DNA of 64,000 bases from NCBI GenBank assembly GCA_963783375.1, contig CAWANH010000029.1, positions 1,216,001 through 1,280,000 on the forward strand, in the 5' to 3' direction. This document shows positions 12,765-22,130 of the stretch, piece after piece. The notes beneath the pieces were generated by a model, which made no database searches, had not been told where the DNA came from, and was given only the letters and a program-made list of their open reading frames with translations. Numbering within the stretch: position 1 is the first letter of the stretch; every line of letters starts with the position of its first letter. The stretch comes from Candidatus Eiseniibacteriota bacterium (lineage in GTDB: Bacteria; Eisenbacteria; RBG-16-71-46; JABDJR01). The translations under genes and the position numbers were made by a program.

Positions 12765-13898
12765 CTAGGAAAGCGCCTGCTTCACGTCCTCGATCAGATC
12801 CTCCGCGTCCTCGCATCCCACCGAGAACCGGATGAGGCCGTCGGTCAGCCCCACCTTGCGGCGCTCGGATTCGGGAACCGACGCGTGGGTCATGGAGGCG
12901 GGATGGGAAACCAGGCTCTCCACCCCGCCCAGGCTCTCGGCCAGGGAGAATATCCTGAACCGGGGGAGCACCCGGCGGGCCTCGTCGAAGCTCTCCAGGT
13001 CCACCGAGACCATCCCCCCGAAACCGCGCATCTGGCGCCGGGCCAGATCGTACTGGGGATGGGACTCGAGACCGGGATAGATCACCCGCCTCACCGAGGA
13101 GTGGTTCTCCAGGAACCGCGCCACCTGCATGGCGTTCAGGGCGTGCCGCTCCATCCGGAGGGCCAAGGTCTTGATCCCCCGAAGGGCCAGCCAGGCGTCG
13201 AAGGGGCCGGGCACCGCCCCGGCCGCGTTCTGCAGGAATCGCAGGCGCTCGGCCACCCCCGCGTCCCGGGTGACCGCGATCCCCCCCACCATGTCGCTGT
13301 GGCCGTTCAGGTACTTGGTGCTGGAGTGGACCACCACATCCGCCCCCAGCTCGAGGGGGGTCTGAAAGAACGGGCTCATGAAGGTGTTGTCCACCACCAG
13401 ACGCACCCCCCGCTGGCGGCAGATCGCGCTCACCGCGGGGATGTCGGTGAGGATCATGACCGGGTTGGAAGGGGTCTCGATCAGGAGCATGCGGGTCCCG
13501 GGGGTGATCGCCTCCGCCACCGCGGCCGGGTCGCGGGTGGAGACGGTCCGGAAGGCCATCCCGAGGGGGTTCATGACCTGGTCGAGGAGCCGGTAGGTGC
13601 CGCCGTAGAGGTTGTCCCCCAGGAGCACCTCGTCCCCGGCGGCCAGGGTCTGGACCACGGCGTGGATCGCGGCCATGCCGCTGGCGAAGGCGATCCCGTG
13701 GTCGGCCTTCTCCAGGGCGGCCACGTTTCGCTCCAGAGCCTCCCGGGTGGGGTTCTGGGTGCGCGCGTACTCGTACCCCTTGTGCTTTCCCACCCCCTCC
13801 TGGACGTAGGTCGAGGTCTGGTAGATGGGAACCATGACCGCCCCGGTGGTGGGGTCAGGATGCTGTCCGGCGTGGATGGCGTCGGTGGAGAAACCCAT
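12765..13898 (-). CDS. Cystathionine gamma-lyase/gamma-synthase (PLP trans-sulfuration enzyme)
   Basis: PIYQTSTY, YARTQNPT, FASGMAA, IETPSNP, VVDNTF, HSSTKYLNGHSD (PLP Lys), AESLGGVESL. Confidence 0.93.
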   Translation of the reverse strand: MGFSTDAIHAGQHPDPTTGAVMVPIYQTSTYVQEGVGKHKGYEYARTQNPTREALERNVAALEKADHGIAFASGMAAIHAVVQTLAAGDEVLLGDNLYGGTYRLLDQVMNPLGMAFRTVSTRDPAAVAEAITPGTRMLLIETPSNPVMILTDIPAVSAICRQRGVRLVVDNTFMSPFFQTPLELGADVVVHSSTKYLNGHSDMVGGIAVTRDAGVAERLRFLQNAAGAVPGPFDAWLALRGIKTLALRMERHALNAMQVARFLENHSSVRRVIYPGLESHPQYDLARRQMRGFGGMVSVDLESFDEARRVLPRFRIFSLAESLGGVESLVSHPASMTHASVPESERRKVGLTDGLIRFSVGCEDAEDLIEDVKQALS

Positions 13899-14187: not shown

Positions 14188-15579
14188 TCAGTGCACCTTG
14201 GTGACGGCCTCCGCGTAGTTGAAGTTCTTGTCGAAATCCCCGGTGTGGCAGTTCCGGCAGGTGTCCTCGGTGGGAACCTTCACCATGGCCGCGGTGCCGT
14301 GAAAGGTCCCCATCCCGTGACAGCTCTCGCACTGAACGTTACGCATGGCTGGAGTGTCCACGGCGTTGGCGGTCTGCTTGGATGCGTCCGCGTTCACGGT
14401 CAACTCGTAGCCGGTGGGCTGGCCGTAGCCGGTGACGTGGCACTGGACGCACTCCGTGGAGTTCTCCTTGTGGTCCTTGGCCAGGGTGGCGAAGGCATGG
14501 GCATGGGGGGACTCGGCCCACTTGGTGTAGATCTCGCTGTGGCAACGGGCGCAGGTCTCGGCCCCGACGTATTTCTCCGTCCCCTGCATCACCGCCGCCT
14601 TGGCCGCGTTCTTCCTCTTCTCCTCCGACTTCTTGGCGTTCCAGTCGTTCTCCCACTTGGTCACCACGGCATCCATGTCGCCGTCCTTGGCGACCTTCTC
14701 GTCCAGGGGTTTCCCCTCGCCGTTGTAGTCGGCGATCTGCTTGTCGTCCCCCAGGGTGAGGTCGAGGACCGAGAGGTACTGACCCCGGGTGCCGGGACGA
14801 AGGATCAGGGTTTGACCGGTGCGGTCGGGGTTGAACATGTAGCCCGGGTTGTGACCCACCATCACCACGTCCATGCCCGGAACGTCGGTGGCCAGCTGCT
14901 TGGCGTCCCGGGGGTCCTCGTGCACCAGCGCCACCACGATGTCCGCTTTGCTCCGAAGCTCGGGGATCACCCGCTGAAGGGCGGTCTTGGGGTCCTCGAA
15001 GGTGAAGTCGTCCGCCTTCTGGATCCCCCGGGTGAGGTTGAAGTTGTAGTAGGAACCGGCGGTGACTCCGGTGATCCCCACCTTGACCCCATCCCGGTCC
15101 ACGATGACGTACTCCGGCCAGACCTCTTTCCCCGCTTTGTCCTTGATGTTGGCCGAGACCACCTTCACCTCGGGGTGGTTCTCGTACATCTTCTTCAGCG
15201 GTTCCAGGCCCGGGATCATCTCCCGCTCGCCGGGAGTGACCGCGTCATAGCCCAGCTTGGCCATCATGTCGAACTCGAAGGAGGTCTTTCCCCAGGGGTC
15301 GTAGTCGTTGTCGGCCGCGAAGTCGCCCGCGTCGACGAGGACGATGGGGTTTCCCTGTGCCCGCTCGCTCTTGATCAAGGTCGCCCTCCGGGCGAACCCG
15401 CCTAATTGCCTCTTGTGTCACCCACAGGGCGAGGTCTCGCCGTTGATCGACGAGGACCCCAGGATGGTGATGGTATTGTTCGACTTGCTCTCGCCTTGGG
15501 ATGCCGGCAAGAGCAGGAGGAACACCAGGGATAGGCCCGCCAACGAGCCCAACCACATGAGCTTACGCCTGAATTTCAT
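14188..15579 (-). CDS. Secreted UshA-like selenoprotein (CGU) fused to a tetraheme c-type cytochrome domain; Sec at codon 54 (TGA 15418-15420)
   Basis: SD AGGAGAGG, ATG 15579, signal peptide, then ...ETSPCG-TGA-HKRQLGGFARRATLIK...VLVDAGDF in frame with ORF 14188..15378; the neighbouring paralog has TSCGCAKRDLGGFPRR at the same position; 4 CxxCH (CARCH, CVQCH, CESCH, CRNCH); 463 aa if read through. Confidence 0.88.
15376..15417 (-). promoter_or_regulatory. Candidate bacterial SECIS element
   Basis: 3' of the UGA: CACAAGAGGCAATTAGGCGGGTTCGCCCGGAGGGCGACCTTG. Folds either as GGCG-GGTT-CGCC (loop begins with G at +20) or as GG(U bulge)TCGCCC-GGA-GGGCGACC (loop G at +29), with CAAG/CTTG as a lower stem. 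Confidence 0.6.
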
Positions 15580-15748: not shown

Positions 15749-16741
15749 TTACTCGGTCCCTTCGTCCTTTTCCTTGTCCTGGGCCTTCTCCCGGGCCTTC
15801 CAGGCGGTCTCCCACCGCGTCACCACCGGACCGATGGCCGGATCCTTGGGGTAGGAATCGCTCACCGGCGTCCCCTCACCCTCGAAGTCGGCGACGGTGT
15901 TGTCCGGTCCCAGGGTGAGGTGCAGCACCGAGAGATACTGACCGCGGGTTCCGGGACTGAGCACCACCGTCTTCCCGGACTGTTCGGGGGCGAAGACGTA
16001 TTTCGGGTTGTGGCCCACCACCACGACGTCCACCCCCGGCGCGTCGGTCGCGAGTTTCTTGGCCTCGTCGGGGGACTGGTGAACGAGCGCCACCACGATG
16101 TCGACCTTGCCCTGGAGTTCCCCCTCCACGCGCCGGAGCGCCTGGGCGGGATCCTCGAAGGTGAAGTCGTCCGACGTCTGTACCTTCCGAGCCACGTTGA
16201 ACTTGTAGAAGGCGTCGCCGGTGACCCCGGTCACCCCGATCTTGATCCCGCCCTTCTCCACGATCACGTACTCCGGCCAGATCCGGTTGCCGGAGGCGTC
16301 CATCACGTTGGCCGACACCACCTTCACCTCGGGATGGGCGGCACACACCTCTTTCAGGGACGCGAGCCCGTCGACCATCTCCCGCTCGCCGGGGGTGACC
16401 GCGTCGTATCCCAGCCGGGCCATCATCTCGAAGATGAAGGCGGTCTTCTTGTGGCGCTCGAAACCCCGGTCCGCCCCGAAATCCCCCGCGTCCACCAGGA
16501 GAACCGGGTTCCCGGCGTCCCGCACCTCTTTGATCACGCTGGCCCTGCGGGGGAAGCCCCCCAGGTCCCGCTTCGCGCAGCCGCAGGAGGTGATCTCCCC
16601 CTCGATGGAGGCGGATCCGATAACCGTGAGGGTGGAGCCCGGGACCGCCTCGCCCCGCGCCGCGGGAAGGACCAGCAGCAGGGCCACGGCCAGCCCGGCG
16701 GGGAGGCTCAGTCGGCCCAAGGTGCGCGTACTAATCATCAT
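15749..16741 (-). CDS. Secreted UshA/5'-nucleotidase-fold protein, Cys (CGC) paralog without a heme domain
   Basis: Signal peptide; SIEGEITSCGCAKRDLGG, LLVDAGDF, YDAVTPGERE, VVSANV, IGVTGVT, VVVGHNP; colinear with the first ~330 aa of the downstream gene. Confidence 0.88.
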   Translation of the reverse strand: MMISTRTLGRLSLPAGLAVALLLVLPAARGEAVPGSTLTVIGSASIEGEITSCGCAKRDLGGFPRRASVIKEVRDAGNPVLLVDAGDFGADRGFERHKKTAFIFEMMARLGYDAVTPGEREMVDGLASLKEVCAAHPEVKVVSANVMDASGNRIWPEYVIVEKGGIKIGVTGVTGDAFYKFNVARKVQTSDDFTFEDPAQALRRVEGELQGKVDIVVALVHQSPDEAKKLATDAPGVDVVVVGHNPKYVFAPEQSGKTVVLSPGTRGQYLSVLHLTLGPDNTVADFEGEGTPVSDSYPKDPAIGPVVTRWETAWKAREKAQDKEKDEGTE

Positions 16742-16897: not shown

Positions 16898-19800
16898 TCA
16901 CGGCAGCATCCGGGTGATGCCGGAGAGCCCGCTGCCGGCGTTTCGGCCCTGCTCGTACTTCACGTCCGGCATGGCCTTGGCGTTGATCCGGAAGTAGAAC
17001 GAGGTGTCGGTTCCCAGCTGGTTCCGGCTGAACTGGGCCTCCCAGCAGTGGAGGTCCCGGCGGAGGCCGATCGACTCGCCCGACACCTTGTGGGCGGTAA
17101 GGTCCCAGGTGCTTGAATAGGTGACCGACCAGTTCTTGGTGATCTGGACCGAGGCGTTGGTGTTCAGGGTGGTGGTGGTCTTGATCCGGTCGCCGACCCG
17201 GGATCCGCTGTAGGAGAGGCTGAAGTTGCTGTTCCAGCGGAGGGCCTCGTCGGAAGCGGGGCTCGACCCCACCTGGTCCAGGGCCGAGCGCCCCAGGTTG
17301 GCCCCCAGCCGCTCCCAGGTCCCCGTGTCGCGGAACGGGTCCTCGGGGCCGGCGGTGGCCTCCCCCGCCTCCGCCCCGGGGAGGAGCCCCCCCAGCCCGA
17401 AGTTGGCCCGGAACCCGTAGTTCAGGAACCGGAACTGATGGTAGGGGTCGTGGTTCGAGTTGAAGCTCATGTTCACCCCGTACACGGTGGGGATGTCCAA
17501 GTTGGAGGACACGTTGCTCCATCCCCGGGTCCCCCGCTTCTTGGCCAGGAAATCGTATCCCGAACCCAGGGACCACTCGAGCAGGTTGATCCGTTTGATG
17601 CTCTCCCCGGAGCGGACCTTGGCCTGGAGCCCGTTCCGGAGTCCCAGGCTCACCGATTTCTGCTCGAACCCGCCGATCCCCGGGAACCGGTTGTGCCGGT
17701 TTCCGTCGGCATCCACGTAGGTGAGGCCGTTGAAGCTCGGCTGGTACCTGAACGTCGCGTTGGGCTGGAAGGTGTGGCGAAGGGCGGTGACCGGTCCGAT
17801 CCCCCCGAAGGTCCCGTAGATCGCGGTCCCCGTACCCACCGAGAGGTTCCAGACCGCGGCCCGGCGGAAGCCCTTCACGGTGTCGGTGGCCGAGTACTCG
17901 CGATCCGCCCAGTTCTCGGTGAGGTTCAGGGATGGCTGGAAGTTGAACACGTTCCAGAACCGCCGCGAGTCATTGAGGCTGATGGTGTGCCGGGCGGAGG
18001 ACGAGCGTTCCTTGTCGACGGCGTAGAGGGTGTCCGCGGCCGCACCCACGGTGGTGTCCGCGGGCACAAGGGTGGTCCGTTCCTTCTCGGTGTAGATGGA
18101 GGAGCCGCTGGAACTCAAGGTGAGGCTGGTGCTGGAAAGCCAGGGCCTCACCCCGCCCTTTCCCTCCGCGTCCGCCGGACGTCCAAGGGTGATCCGGTTC
18201 ATGGAGAACCGGTACTGGGGGAAGCTCTCGGTCAAGATCGTCTCGTCCCTCCCGTCACCGGGCACCACGGCCAGATTCTTGGTGCGGCTGGCGGTCAGGA
18301 ACAACGATGCCCTGGAAAACGACCGGCTCAGGGAGAGATCGGACTTGAGTATCCGATCCACCCGGTCGGCAAAGTCGTTGCCCAGGGGAAGCTGCTGGTT
18401 GTATTGCGCGTCCCGGAATGAGGCCCGGCCGGTGAGCCGCCAGTCCCCCAGGGTCATGTCGTGGGCCCCCTGAAGGTTCGAAAGCTTCTGTCCCGAGCCG
18501 AGGGTGCGCCCGAACTGCAGGTTGCCGTTCATGACGTACCGCTTGGCATACCGCCCCTCGACCTGTCCGATGAATTGCGAGGGCTGTTCGGTGTAGCTGG
18601 CGCTGGTGGTGAGATCCCAGTACTGGCTGGCCGCCCAGTAGTAGCCGAGGTTGGAGAAGGATCGCCCCTGGGTGCTTCCCAGCCCGAAGTCGATGTTGGG
18701 GGTGAGGAACCCGGAGTGGCGTCCCTTGCGGATCGAGAACACGTAGAACGGCAGGGCGAAGACCGGGATGTCCCGGATGTAGAGGGTCACCGGCTTCGCC
18801 ACCACCTTGTCCTTGAGGTAGATCCGCATCCGCTTGCTGGTGAAGTGGTAGTGGGGCGACTTGTCGTGATCGATGAGATCACAGGTGGTGTAGCTTCCCT
18901 CCCGGGCCAGGAACTGGTCTTCGCCGATCTTTCGGAGCGCGTCCGAATAGATGAATCCGTCCTGGGCTTCGGTCTTCCCGGCCCGGATCATCCCCTCACG
19001 GGTATTGAGGTTGTAGTTCATCCGGGTGCCGACGATCTGCTGGGCCGCCGTCCCCTCCCCGTGCTCCACCAGCACGGGCTTGTCCTCCGCCTCCATGTAG
19101 CGCCGGTCGGTGTAGAAACGCACCTTGCCCGCGGTGAGGGTGAGGCTTCCGTAGTCCGCCTTGGCCTCGCCCAGAAGATCCACCACGCGGTCGGAAACCG
19201 TGTAGTCCACGGTGGCGGCCTCGTAGACCACCTTCTCCGGCGCGGTTCCCGCCGCGGTGTCGGCGTGGGCGGGAACCGGCGCGGCCCCCGCCGCGGTGCC
19301 GGGGTGGGCCGGGCTCCCGGCCACGGTGTCGGGGGCCGCCCCCGGCGGGGTGGGGTTCCCCGGAGGTGGGGCCGCCGAATCGGGGGCGGCCGGCGTCCTC
19401 CCCGGCCCGGACGGAGCGCCGCCGGTGGTGTCCGGAGGCCCTCCGAGGATCCGGCCCAGACCCGCCGCGGCTTCGGCGGCCCGCTCCTCGGGGCTCATGG
19501 CGGTCGAGACATCCTTCCCCCCGAAGGTGTAGACCCCCTTGGCGTGTCCGGAGATCCGCACCCGGTGGATCTTCCCCTCCTCGATGAAGATGGTGATGGT
19601 GTCGCCCTGGGCGGCGTTGGTTCCCGCCCCGGCCTCCGCATCGGCCGGCGAGGGAATGTAGGCGCTGGTGGCGTGGTCGAACACCACCACCCGGTCCGCG
19701 GCGTCCTCCACGAAGTACATGGTGAGGGAGTCGCCGCGGACGATGCTCATCTCCCCCACGTGCAGGCTGTCCGTGGGGGCGTAGGTGACCTGCGCCCGGC

Positions 19801-21163
19801 CGTGAACGTCGGCCTGCTGGAGCACCCGGTCCTCGTCGAAGCGGAGAATGAGGGTGTCTCCGGTGAGCGTCCCGTCCGCCTCCTCCACCCGGGGGCTCCC
19901 GTAGAGGAAGGCGTTGTGGGTGTCGGCGAAGAACGAGGCGGAGTCGGCATAGGCGCGGACGCCGCCTCGGAGCACGCGCACCGCGCCCGAGGCGGAGGCG
20001 TTCCCCCCCGGATCCAGCCACACCCGCTCCCCCCCGATCCGGATCGGTCCCCCGCTCCCTCCGGTCAGGATCAGCATCGGGCGCTGGTCCACCCGGGCGC
20101 GGTCGGTGTCCAGGTCGTAGATCAGCCGCTCGCCGGTCAGGTTGGTGTTGTTTCCCGGCTCGCTGACCCGGACCTCCCCGAGCAGGATGATCTGGCGTCG
20201 TTCCCGGTACCAGTCCGCCTCCCGGGCCATGAACCGGCGTTCCCCGCGATGCCCCCGAGCGTTGCCGATCATGCGCATCACCCCGGTCTCCCGGTCGAAG
20301 CGCCCCTCGTCCCCCTCCAGCACCAGGGAGTCCGCGGGGACCCTCACCTCCACCTCGCCGTCGGCCACCAGGAGCCCGGTGTCGCGATGGTAGACCGCGG
20401 TCCGGCTTCTCCCGTGGGTTCCGGGATCGGTGAACACGACCCCGCCGCTCAGGTGCGCTTCGCCGGAGTCCACCAGATAGGTGCCGGTGGGCGCGGCGAT
20501 GGTGAGGTCCTTGTGGGTGATGAAGGGGTTGGTCACGTGGAGCACCTGGCCTTCGGGCCCGGTGGTGGCGATCAACGGCTCCCCGGTCAGCGTCCACTCG
20601 TCGGGACCGGTGATCGCCTCGGGGGCGGGGACGACCGAGGTTTCCGGCGGCGCGGCGGCGGTCTTCGGAACCGCCCCCGCGACGACCGAGGTTTCGGGGA
20701 CGGCGACGGCGGTCGGCGGGACGCCCGGAGCGGCGGTGGTCCCGGGCGCGGCCCCGGCGCCCGGCGGCCGAGCCCCGGCCACCACCGTGGTCCCCGGCGC
20801 CGCCGCGGCGCCCGCGAACGGGGTCCGGCCCGTGCTCTCCGGCGCGGCCTCGGCGATTCCCGGGGCCGGCCCCGCCCCGACGACGATGGCCCCGGTGGAA
20901 TCGACGCTCCATCCGCCGGTGAGCGCCCCGGTGGAATCCAGGCCCGATCCGGCGGTGGGCGCCCCGGTGGAGTCGCCCGTCCCCCCGGGTTGAACCGCCT
21001 GGGAGCCGGGAGAGCGGGACGCGGCGGTCGGGGAGGTGCCCAGGGGTTCGCGGAACCACGCGCACCCCCCCAGGACCGCGAGCAGCAGCACGATCCCCAC
21101 CCGGCCGGGAACCGGCCCGAGCCTGAAACGGCCGGCCATCGACGGCCCCGTGGTCGTGATCAT
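16898..21163 (-). CDS. lptD: Very large LPS-assembly protein LptD with extended OstA/LptA-like beta-jellyroll region
   Basis: C-terminal LptD hallmarks (GSYTTCD...PHYHF, RHSGFLTP, LGYYWAASQYWD, RRDLHCWE, FYFRINA); N-terminal OstA-like strands; lipobox-like VLGGC; about 1420 aa; start (21163 or 21139) uncertain. Confidence 0.85.
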   Translation of the reverse strand: MITTTGPSMAGRFRLGPVPGRVGIVLLLAVLGGCAWFREPLGTSPTAASRSPGSQAVQPGGTGDSTGAPTAGSGLDSTGALTGGWSVDSTGAIVVGAGPAPGIAEAAPESTGRTPFAGAAAAPGTTVVAGARPPGAGAAPGTTAAPGVPPTAVAVPETSVVAGAVPKTAAAPPETSVVPAPEAITGPDEWTLTGEPLIATTGPEGQVLHVTNPFITHKDLTIAAPTGTYLVDSGEAHLSGGVVFTDPGTHGRSRTAVYHRDTGLLVADGEVEVRVPADSLVLEGDEGRFDRETGVMRMIGNARGHRGERRFMAREADWYRERRQIILLGEVRVSEPGNNTNLTGERLIYDLDTDRARVDQRPMLILTGGSGGPIRIGGERVWLDPGGNASASGAVRVLRGGVRAYADSASFFADTHNAFLYGSPRVEEADGTLTGDTLILRFDEDRVLQQADVHGRAQVTYAPTDSLHVGEMSIVRGDSLTMYFVEDAADRVVVFDHATSAYIPSPADAEAGAGTNAAQGDTITIFIEEGKIHRVRISGHAKGVYTFGGKDVSTAMSPEERAAEAAAGLGRILGGPPDTTGGAPSGPGRTPAAPDSAAPPPGNPTPPGAAPDTVAGSPAHPGTAAGAAPVPAHADTAAGTAPEKVVYEAATVDYTVSDRVVDLLGEAKADYGSLTLTAGKVRFYTDRRYMEAEDKPVLVEHGEGTAAQQIVGTRMNYNLNTREGMIRAGKTEAQDGFIYSDALRKIGEDQFLAREGSYTTCDLIDHDKSPHYHFTSKRMRIYLKDKVVAKPVTLYIRDIPVFALPFYVFSIRKGRHSGFLTPNIDFGLGSTQGRSFSNLGYYWAASQYWDLTTSASYTEQPSQFIGQVEGRYAKRYVMNGNLQFGRTLGSGQKLSNLQGAHDMTLGDWRLTGRASFRDAQYNQQLPLGNDFADRVDRILKSDLSLSRSFSRASLFLTASRTKNLAVVPGDGRDETILTESFPQYRFSMNRITLGRPADAEGKGGVRPWLSSTSLTLSSSGSSIYTEKERTTLVPADTTVGAAADTLYAVDKERSSSARHTISLNDSRRFWNVFNFQPSLNLTENWADREYSATDTVKGFRRAAVWNLSVGTGTAIYGTFGGIGPVTALRHTFQPNATFRYQPSFNGLTYVDADGNRHNRFPGIGGFEQKSVSLGLRNGLQAKVRSGESIKRINLLEWSLGSGYDFLAKKRGTRGWSNVSSNLDIPTVYGVNMSFNSNHDPYHQFRFLNYGFRANFGLGGLLPGAEAGEATAGPEDPFRDTGTWERLGANLGRSALDQVGSSPASDEALRWNSNFSLSYSGSRVGDRIKTTTTLNTNASVQITKNWSVTYSSTWDLTAHKVSGESIGLRRDLHCWEAQFSRNQLGTDTSFYFRINAKAMPDVKYEQGRNAGSGLSGITRMLP

Positions 21164-21164
21164 G

Positions 21165-22130
21165 TCATCGCGCGGTCGTGGTGGAGTCCTCCAGGAGGAG
21201 CGCCGCCGACCCCAGAAGCCCTGCATCGGTTCCGAGTCCCGCGGGGAGAATCTCCGGGGGCGACTGCCGGGCCACCAGAGATCGCCGCATCAGGTGCTCG
21301 CGGGCGGGATCGAAGAGGAGCGCTCCCGCCTGGGCCACCCCGCCGCCGATCACCACCCGCCGGGGGTTGAATATGTTGACCAGGGTCACCAGGAGGCCGC
21401 CCAGGGCATGTCCCACGTTCTCCATCACCTCCCGGGCCACCCGGCTTCCCTGATGGGCGGCCTCGGTCAGGACCTCCGGGGTGAGGGGATCCGCCCCGGA
21501 GAGGAGCGCGTCCCGGGCGAAGCCCGGATGGCGCTTCGCCGCCTTCACGATGTCCTTGTTCCCTACATACCGCTCCGCGCAGCCCCGGTTCCCGCAGGTA
21601 CACTCGATGCCGTCCAGGACCAGGGTGGCATGGCCGGGCTCGCCGGCGAAACCGTCGGCCCCGCGCACCAGTTCCCCGTTCACGATGAATGCCCCGCCGA
21701 TGCCCGTCCCCAGGGTGAGGAACACCATGTGGGGAAGCCGCTCCCCCGCCCCCCATCGCCACTCGGCCAGGGAGAAGGTGTTGACGTCGTTGTCCACCCG
21801 GGCGGGGAGCCCGAGACGATCGCTCAGGGCCTTTCCGAGGGCGAAGTTCTCCCATTTGGGAAGGTTGGGGGAGAACTGCACAAGCCCCTGGTCGCAGTTC
21901 ACCAGCCCCGCGCACCCTGCTCCCACCCCTTCCGCCTTCTCCCATCCCGCCCGGCCGAGGAGCCCACGGAGCTTCTCCGCCACCTCGTCCAGAACCTCTT
22001 CGCGATCGCGGTCGGCGTGGTTGTGGATCGCGTCGGAGGCGGCCAGGCGGGCGGTCTCGTCGATCTCCACCGCCCCCAGCTTGATCCCCGTCCCGCCAAC
22101 GTCCACGCCGAAGATACGACGTGCGGCCAC
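21165..22130 (-). CDS. ROK family sugar kinase (glucokinase-like)
   Basis: GVDVGGT, VDNDVN, TLGTGIGGA, GFAGEPGH, CTCGNRGCAE. Confidence 0.93.
   Translation of the reverse strand: MAARRIFGVDVGGTGIKLGAVEIDETARLAASDAIHNHADRDREEVLDEVAEKLRGLLGRAGWEKAEGVGAGCAGLVNCDQGLVQFSPNLPKWENFALGKALSDRLGLPARVDNDVNTFSLAEWRWGAGERLPHMVFLTLGTGIGGAFIVNGELVRGADGFAGEPGHATLVLDGIECTCGNRGCAERYVGNKDIVKAAKRHPGFARDALLSGADPLTPEVLTEAAHQGSRVAREVMENVGHALGGLLVTLVNIFNPRRVVIGGGVAQAGALLFDPAREHLMRRSLVARQSPPEILPAGLGTDAGLLGSAALLLEDSTTTAR

Follow-up and report, generated by a model that had tools for sequence, protein, structure and literature searches.

A split tetraheme gene of Candidatus Eiseniibacteriota as a very likely selenoprotein of the catalogued UshA-like PCGU family, with a possible role in thiol-disulfide exchange

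The dimetal ligands of 5'-nucleotidases and SoxB lie in the motifs DxH, GD, GNHE, H and GHxH, and UshA undergoes a hinge motion and has a mobile C-terminal domain. A family of UshA-like selenoproteins has been listed as 'UshA-like protein, CxU' (PMC13188914, PMC9312934) and as 'COG0737, UshA-like' (PMC2398784), and no function was given in the accessible parts of these papers. A literature search on the function of the family, incomplete in coverage and with supplements excluded, returned only catalogue listings or unrelated papers. For the multiheme selenoprotein MccSep, the available part of the description reports that heme 2 is His/Cys ligated and that the Sec reaches in from a separate domain (PMC13510729). 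As for disulfide formation in the envelope, a 2026 preprint reports, in the portion that was accessible, that MauE can substitute for DsbB via a CGC motif, that none of the three known disulfide-forming proteins is present in 4,169 of 20,704 species, and that further pathways are expected (10.64898/2026.03.05.709764).

The window analysed here is a stretch of 64,000 nucleotides from contig CAWANH010000029.1 of a Candidatus Eiseniibacteriota bacterium. The gene under study (14188..15579, minus strand) was assigned, by sequence and profile match, as a full selenoprotein gene of NF041198, UshA-like (seleno)protein. Its frame starts with an ATG at 15579, passes an in-frame TGA at 15420-15418 and ends at the stop at 14190-14188, giving 463 codons and a protein of 463 aa. 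The internal TGA is the single one in this frame and corresponds to residue 54, in the context ETSPCG-U-HKRQLGGFARRAT. Standard ORF calling cuts the gene at this TGA into a short upstream ORF and a 396-aa ORF. The initial annotation had proposed that the ORF track hid one gene encoding a signal peptide, a nucleotidase fold and a tetraheme domain; a single frame of 463 residues with four CxxCH motifs indeed runs across the TGA, and the architecture was supported by sequence, profiles and a structural model. The likely signal peptide (15493..15579, minus strand) has a basic start, a hydrophobic core and an ASQG end, with the cleavage site judged by eye, and an AlphaFold2 model predicts a helix at residues 2-22. 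It is followed by the C52-G53-U54 motif (15418..15426, minus strand; sequence and comparison), whose C52 and U54 are the sole Cys/Sec residues beyond the CxxCH motifs. A region with the 5'-nucleotidase N-terminal (metallophosphatase) fold and degenerate metal ligands (residues 33-320; 14620..15483, minus strand; model and alignment) and a c554-type tetraheme domain (C343, C377, C417 and C441; 14191..14562, minus strand; PF13435 and alignment) make up most of the protein. No sigma-70 promoter-like site was found, and terminator-like sites were at chance level. Contigs of RNA run X6 come from a relative and do not show transcription.

The UGA is almost certainly read as selenocysteine, judging from the genome and from comparison of homologs. 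The genome (G000, 97% complete) contains selA, selB and selD above cut-offs and a tRNA-Sec with anticodon TCA. The initial annotation, which had read the TGA as Sec, had named this machinery, the raw reads and the homologs as the places to look, and the machinery and the homologs bore it out. Forty relatives were searched together with this genome, and the family gene was matched in 40 of the 41. TGA occupied the CxU site in 30/30 related loci returned, of which 29 had four CxxCH motifs and 1 had three. In a wider set of 79 further loci from many phyla, the 82 profile hits comprised 59 with TGA, 18 with TGC/TGT and 5 without the motif, so that Sec and Cys codons alternate at this site. The tandem paralog upstream (16741-15749) reads SCGCAKRDLGGFPRR and has TGC at the codon equivalent to the TGA, as had been claimed. 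Furthermore, the TGA was covered without difference by contigs of two DNA runs of one study, although these contigs end near the TGA (15 letters away in one run and 3 in the other), and a TGC/TGT was not seen in them. The selD gene (G000:C1:187933-188862, minus strand) itself has one in-frame TGA and thus probably also encodes a selenoprotein.

A hairpin of SECIS type with a GGA loop at 15389-15387 (15377..15399, minus strand; folding and covariation) is located downstream of the UGA, its stem spanning 15399-15377 and its loop 29-31 nt past the UGA. A G-led loop in a hairpin just 3' of the UGA is the bacterial SECIS consensus. The hairpin with a G-led apical loop had been described in the initial annotation, and its presence was borne out; its stability in single-sequence folding, on the other hand, was no better than chance, with z-scores of -1.26 and -1.39 for two short fragments and +0.25 and +0.31 for two long ones. 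Mean hairpin energies were -15.2 kcal/mol for TGA forms and -9.6 kcal/mol for Cys forms, in a comparison not controlled for GC content. Single-sequence folding did not single the hairpin out, and hairpin energy is a weak discriminator; a hairpin of equal stability (-16.4 kcal/mol, loop CGC) forms in the same place in the Cys paralog. The support for the hairpin is comparative and comes from covariation rather than from this sequence alone. In the ten-pair stem aligned over 29 distinct sequences, 91.7% of cells were paired and 23 cells were changed on both sides, including synonymous C-G to U-A swaps. None of 500 shuffles matched the pairing and double-change values, and slid controls were 32-59% paired; 43/500 shuffles matched the count of pairs having a double change, and the stem sequences are kin, which can beat shuffles. 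The claimed rarity of the TTA codon before the hairpin is real: among the Leu codons of this genome, as called by us, TTA accounts for 0.06%, and 10/30 relatives have TTA or CTA at the site.

These data also bear on the reading of the TGA as a true stop or an error, which would leave a short peptide and a separate cytoplasmic protein. The hairpin is by itself not significant and the truncated 396-aa form is held in databases, as that reading would have it. It is nevertheless extremely improbable, because the TGA stands at the same site in all 30 relatives and in 59 of the 82 wider-set hits with Cys as its alternate, covariation is seen in the hairpin, the Sec machinery is present in full, and the signal peptide required by the heme motifs is encoded upstream.

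The gene is a member of the already catalogued UshA-like PCGU selenoprotein family, hemes included. The read-through protein (with C for U) scored 278.4 bits against NF041198 (UshA_like_PCGU), marginally above the cut-off of 275; in the genome search, which scored two stretches apart (140.0 and 124.8 bits), it was not flagged above that cut-off. The C-terminal 182 residues with the hemes matched positions 350-519 of NF041198 on their own (E 3e-37), so the curated model already takes in the tetraheme C-terminus and the fusion is no novelty. In addition to the tandem paralog without hemes (15749..16741, minus strand; SCGC motif, 142.8 bits, under the NF041198 cut-off), this genome has three more copies. 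Almost the entire contig C25 (G000:C25:1-9964) is a 99% identical copy of G000:C28:823572-833434; the copy could stem from duplication in the assembly or from strain variation. Each copy carries a second PCGU-tetraheme paralog with a hairpin, located tail to tail with a gene that by eye resembles MsrP, and the C28 copy is frameshifted. A third paralog (G000:C29:400748-401758, plus strand) has no hemes and a PCTU motif, and ORF calling splits it at the TGA too. In P0031, a close paralog from another genome, the domain is kept and the CxC motif is absent (ILPRTYDRGREGG). The family is near-universal in this class and also occurs in Nitrospinota and Gammaproteobacteria, in housekeeping contexts. 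The annotation given here repairs the split gene; standard pipelines truncate the family across a whole uncultured class.

The AlphaFold2 model (mean pLDDT 84.4, pTM 0.73) placed a long linker helix at residues 300-332 after the nucleotidase fold. Residues 33-320 matched the 5'-nucleotidase N-domain (2z1a, Z 35.2, rmsd 2.3 over 278 residues) and also SoxB (Z 32.1), in fold searches that barely probed the heme domain. The metallophosphatase N-fold is thus present, and the full set of dimetal ligands with the catalytic His is not. UshA ligand numbering was applied to the residues here as we presume it to run. The nucleotidase GNHE motif is GERE in this protein, and the His of the first motif was never His in 41 close sequences. 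In the same sequences D86 was kept in 30, E118 (for Asn) in 27, H220 in 36 and H243 in 32, and C52, U/C54, G60, G61, R64 and E120 were invariant; the His ligands were unconserved in 15 distant Cys forms. The substrate-binding C-terminal domain of the hydrolases is absent, with the PF13435 tetraheme domain in its place. It can be asked whether the protein is a metal-dependent phosphoesterase or a SoxB-like sulfur-ester hydrolase with the CxU as metal ligand or redox switch, given that the fold is clearly that of a 5'-nucleotidase N-domain, that D86, E118, H220 and H243 are all present in this protein, and that SoxB was the best non-family model (101.7 bits, cut-off 550). We consider such an activity quite improbable, because neither the first metal motif nor the catalytic His is kept, the other ligands vary across the family, hemes stand in for the substrate-binding domain, and SoxY was found in 0/41 genomes. 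Judged from these alignments, the protein does not appear to be a conserved hydrolase, as conserved metal ligands are lost.

The gene neighbourhoods contain several proteins of disulfide metabolism. A DsbA with CxxC is encoded directly downstream of the selenoprotein gene in 5 Nitrospinota/Nitrospirae loci, MauE directly upstream in 4 genomes, and DsbD upstream in one locus (L113). Two loci were checked for the gene ahead of MauE (L090 and L057), and both had a rhodanese-domain gene there. In this genome the same pair, a rhodanese-like gene and behind it a MauE that has a CGC motif, is located elsewhere (G000:C3:128025-129283, plus strand). The neighbour scan covered 55 of the 79 wider loci, near-duplicates being left out, and 72 of 85 neighbour ORFs, 13 mostly redundant ones being dropped; of the 72, thiol-disulfide proteins and CBS or cystathionine-lyase accounted for only 4 each, Pfam gave no hit for 26, and housekeeping genes made up most of the rest. 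An LptD-like gene, which is context only, lies upstream in the window (16898..21226, minus strand), is kept there in close relatives, and has two invariant Cys. It was found upstream in 21/22 relatives' loci and in 26/79 loci of the wider set, with the two Cys invariant in 21/21. LptD of E. coli needs a disulfide. The synteny, which takes in ROK kinase, FolC and HU as well, is seen only in related lineages and could therefore reflect inheritance of the gene order. The LptD-like protein of the window is unusually long (about 1,420-1,440 aa), with LptA-like and low-complexity N-terminal regions. Downstream in the window, again as context only, is a gene of the cystathionine gamma-synthase/lyase family (12765..13898, minus strand). 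Among 22 relatives' loci, cystathionine-lyase follows the gene in 11 and CBS in 6, which leaves room for a persulfide link.

The known disulfide-forming proteins were searched in the 41 genomes. DsbB was found in 0/41, and likewise in 0/5 genomes with the adjacent DsbA. VKOR was found in 7/41, and MauE in this genome and in 30 of the 41 searched (27 over the cut-off), as well as in 3/5 genomes with the adjacent DsbA. Nine of the 41 genomes had the gene and no match to DsbB, VKOR or MauE, 7 of these nine having a completeness of 90% or more. The search of this genome gave DsbD_TM and four TlpA-like proteins, but no DsbA-like protein.

Partners were also sought among natural fusions. A profile of 15 natural Cys forms gave 150 top representatives, 91 of which had the CxC motif: 44 short stand-alone forms, 22 of domain plus tetraheme (outside the scan) and 25 long or atypical forms, which were scanned. 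Pfam hits of the DsbA/GILT or TlpA type (thioredoxin fold) were found in 12/25 long forms, and local profiles, built from 11 of the 16 proteins that they scored, extended thioredoxin-fold domains to 16/25, with 5 of the 16 also carrying four heme motifs. The search profile had two DsbA-like fusions among its 15 sequences, so such hits are enriched. TlpA/AhpC-TSA fusions made up 4/25 and DUF1573 occurred in 2/25, while the Pfam scan detected SoxY, rhodanese, DsrE and the nucleotidase C-domain in none of the 25. P0132-P0134 combine a DsbA-like domain with two CxC domains, the second of them bearing four hemes, a layout that mirrors the gene pair of the window (the CGC paralog and the tetraheme selenoprotein). 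Many of the fused DsbA-like domains carry one Cys only (CPYG). P0124 has a fused CxxC domain and, by eye, a CcdA-like membrane part, with no Pfam hit. A word-indexed search for longer forms returned 8 proteins.

The tetraheme domain matched PF13435 with 50.3 bits (cut-off 20.8), and its heme motifs are collinear with those of cytochrome c554. Its four heme motifs face three conserved candidate distal His (H359, H427 and H463), and heme 2 is probably the one without a conserved distal His; the c554 ligation pattern, as we assume it to be, points to heme 2 as the open one here. Three CxxCH motifs instead of four occur in 12/90 heme-bearing homologs, and in the three that were read (P0032, P0035 and L030) the lost motif is that of heme 2, which speaks against a fixed role of this heme. 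These three represent a clade of close orthologs in which the second CxxCH is lost and the other three heme motifs are kept. The genome encodes 34 proteins with at least three CxxCH motifs. A large multiheme cluster at G000:C29:1456633-1475600 contains a 42-CxxCH protein and a stand-alone c554-like tetraheme protein related to the C-terminus of this gene, and another protein with 51 CxxCH is encoded on C28.

A heme 2 of this kind invites comparison with MccSep. By analogy, and close to what the initial annotation had in mind, the protein could reduce polysulfide, persulfide or selenite in the periplasm, with C52 as a ligand of heme 2 and U54 attacking an S-S bond. In MccSep, according to the available part of the source, heme 2 is His/Cys ligated with the Sec coming from a separate domain (PMC13510729), and here heme 2 probably lacks a conserved distal His, and R64 is kept in all aligned sequences. 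The N-terminal heme region is weakly similar to MccSep chains (E 0.22) and to NF040886, and the downstream cystathionine gamma-lyase-type and CBS genes (11/22 and 6/22) and the rhodanese-domain genes before MauE in the two loci checked fit with such chemistry. However, the NF040886 score of 21.1 bits is far under the MccSep/ExtKL cut-off of 250, heme 2 is absent in some orthologs, 44 of the 91 CxC hits are short forms without heme, the near-universal family has members in housekeeping contexts in Nitrospinota and Gammaproteobacteria, and no sulfur-carrier fusion was seen in the 25 long forms. We therefore regard an MccSep-like reductase as unlikely. A search for MccSep in the 41 genomes gave no match, yet control genomes gave no match either.

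The best explanation, which we hold tentatively and at a little under an even chance, is that the protein is an exported thiol-disulfide/heme relay, probably oxidising, in the direction of DsbB; an oxidase is modestly favoured over a reductase. Support comes from recurrent fusion and adjacency to thioredoxin-fold proteins, the lost metal ligands, the Sec machinery and the conserved TGA. After export and heme attachment, C52-U54 would alternate between a selenenylsulfide and a reduced pair, taking two electrons from a thioredoxin-fold partner or from a folding envelope protein such as LptD, possibly with the heme-less CGC paralog next door as intermediate. On the linker helix that carries a mobile C-terminal domain in 5'-nucleotidases, the heme domain would take that domain's place; it could swing onto the CxU loop, accept the electrons singly, with heme 2 as the most plausible entry point, and hand them to the periplasmic cytochrome pool. 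Against the relay, only 4/72 neighbours are thiol-disulfide proteins and a DsbA-like protein was not found in this genome. The initial annotation had suggested a redox enzyme coupling the CxU to a heme wire, for example in sulfur or selenium oxyanion chemistry. The redox role is the best reading here as well, whereas the oxyanion substrate has little in its favour: SoxY was found in none of the 41 genomes, dsrA was not found in this genome, SoxY, rhodanese and DsrE were in 0/25 fusions, and the fused partners are mostly thioredoxin-fold domains.

The same relay might serve the reducing branch only: with electrons from low-potential hemes or from DsbD/CcdA, it would reduce periplasmic disulfides or act as an antioxidant, for instance in the maturation of c-type cytochromes or in mending envelope proteins after oxidation. 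Partners of the DsbD and CcdA type speak for a reducing direction. In line with it are the TlpA/AhpC-TSA fusions (4/25), P0124 with its CxxC domain and, by eye, CcdA-like membrane part, the DsbD upstream in L113, and the DsbD_TM, four TlpA-like proteins and 34 multiheme proteins of this genome. Nevertheless, neighbours such as DsbA and MauE belong to the oxidising branch, and no DsbB was found in the 41 genomes or in the 5 with adjacent DsbA; an exclusively reducing function is thus unlikely. The argument that DsbB is missing and hence replaced by the selenoprotein was weakened by the finding of MauE in 30/41 genomes and in 3/5 DsbA-adjacent ones, since with this DsbB substitute in place a further oxidase is not required. 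It is a speculative and rather unlikely proposal that, through the UshA-like CxU/CxC-tetraheme family, bacteria have a fourth route of oxidative protein folding, with a soluble, selenium-using DsbB substitute passing electrons to c-type hemes and not to quinone. If true, the family would fill part of the gap among bacteria without DsbB, VKOR and MauE. This orphan selenoprotein family, which is widespread and combines thioredoxin fusions with a heme wire, is in any case a directly testable candidate for a disulfide pathway, and its natural Cys forms can be expressed without Sec machinery.

Compared with known systems, the protein is closest to NF041198 itself, with the same PCGU motif, nucleotidase-like domain and tetraheme C-terminus; the model has 519 positions versus 463 residues here, and nothing essential differs. 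With the 5'-nucleotidases UshA and CD73 and with SoxB it shares the N-terminal metallophosphatase fold and the long linker helix, whereas here the metal ligands are degenerate, Arg takes the place of the catalytic His, and a tetraheme domain that of the C-terminal substrate domain. Cytochrome c554 (1bvb) and hemes 1-4 of OcwA have collinear motifs 1-3 and a His after motif 1, as here; the present protein differs in its fused Sec domain, and its heme ligation is a prediction. MccSep/ExtKL (NF040886; PMC13510729), as far as the accessible part of the source describes them, are also periplasmic c-type multiheme proteins with one Sec from a separate domain and a weakly related N-terminal heme region. 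In them the hemes number five, the Sec sits in an Ig-like domain at the C-terminus, and a Cys inside the heme domain ligates a heme, in contrast to the four hemes, N-terminal nucleotidase-fold domain, CxU pair and Sec at residue 54 found here. With DsbB, VKOR and MauE the protein would share the role of re-oxidising thioredoxin-fold partners, and the CGC active site of MauE, as given in the available part of its description, resembles the CxU/CxC here (10.64898/2026.03.05.709764). Those three are quinone-linked four-helix membrane proteins; the selenoprotein gave no Pfam hit of that kind, is predicted to be soluble with another fold, and would use hemes.
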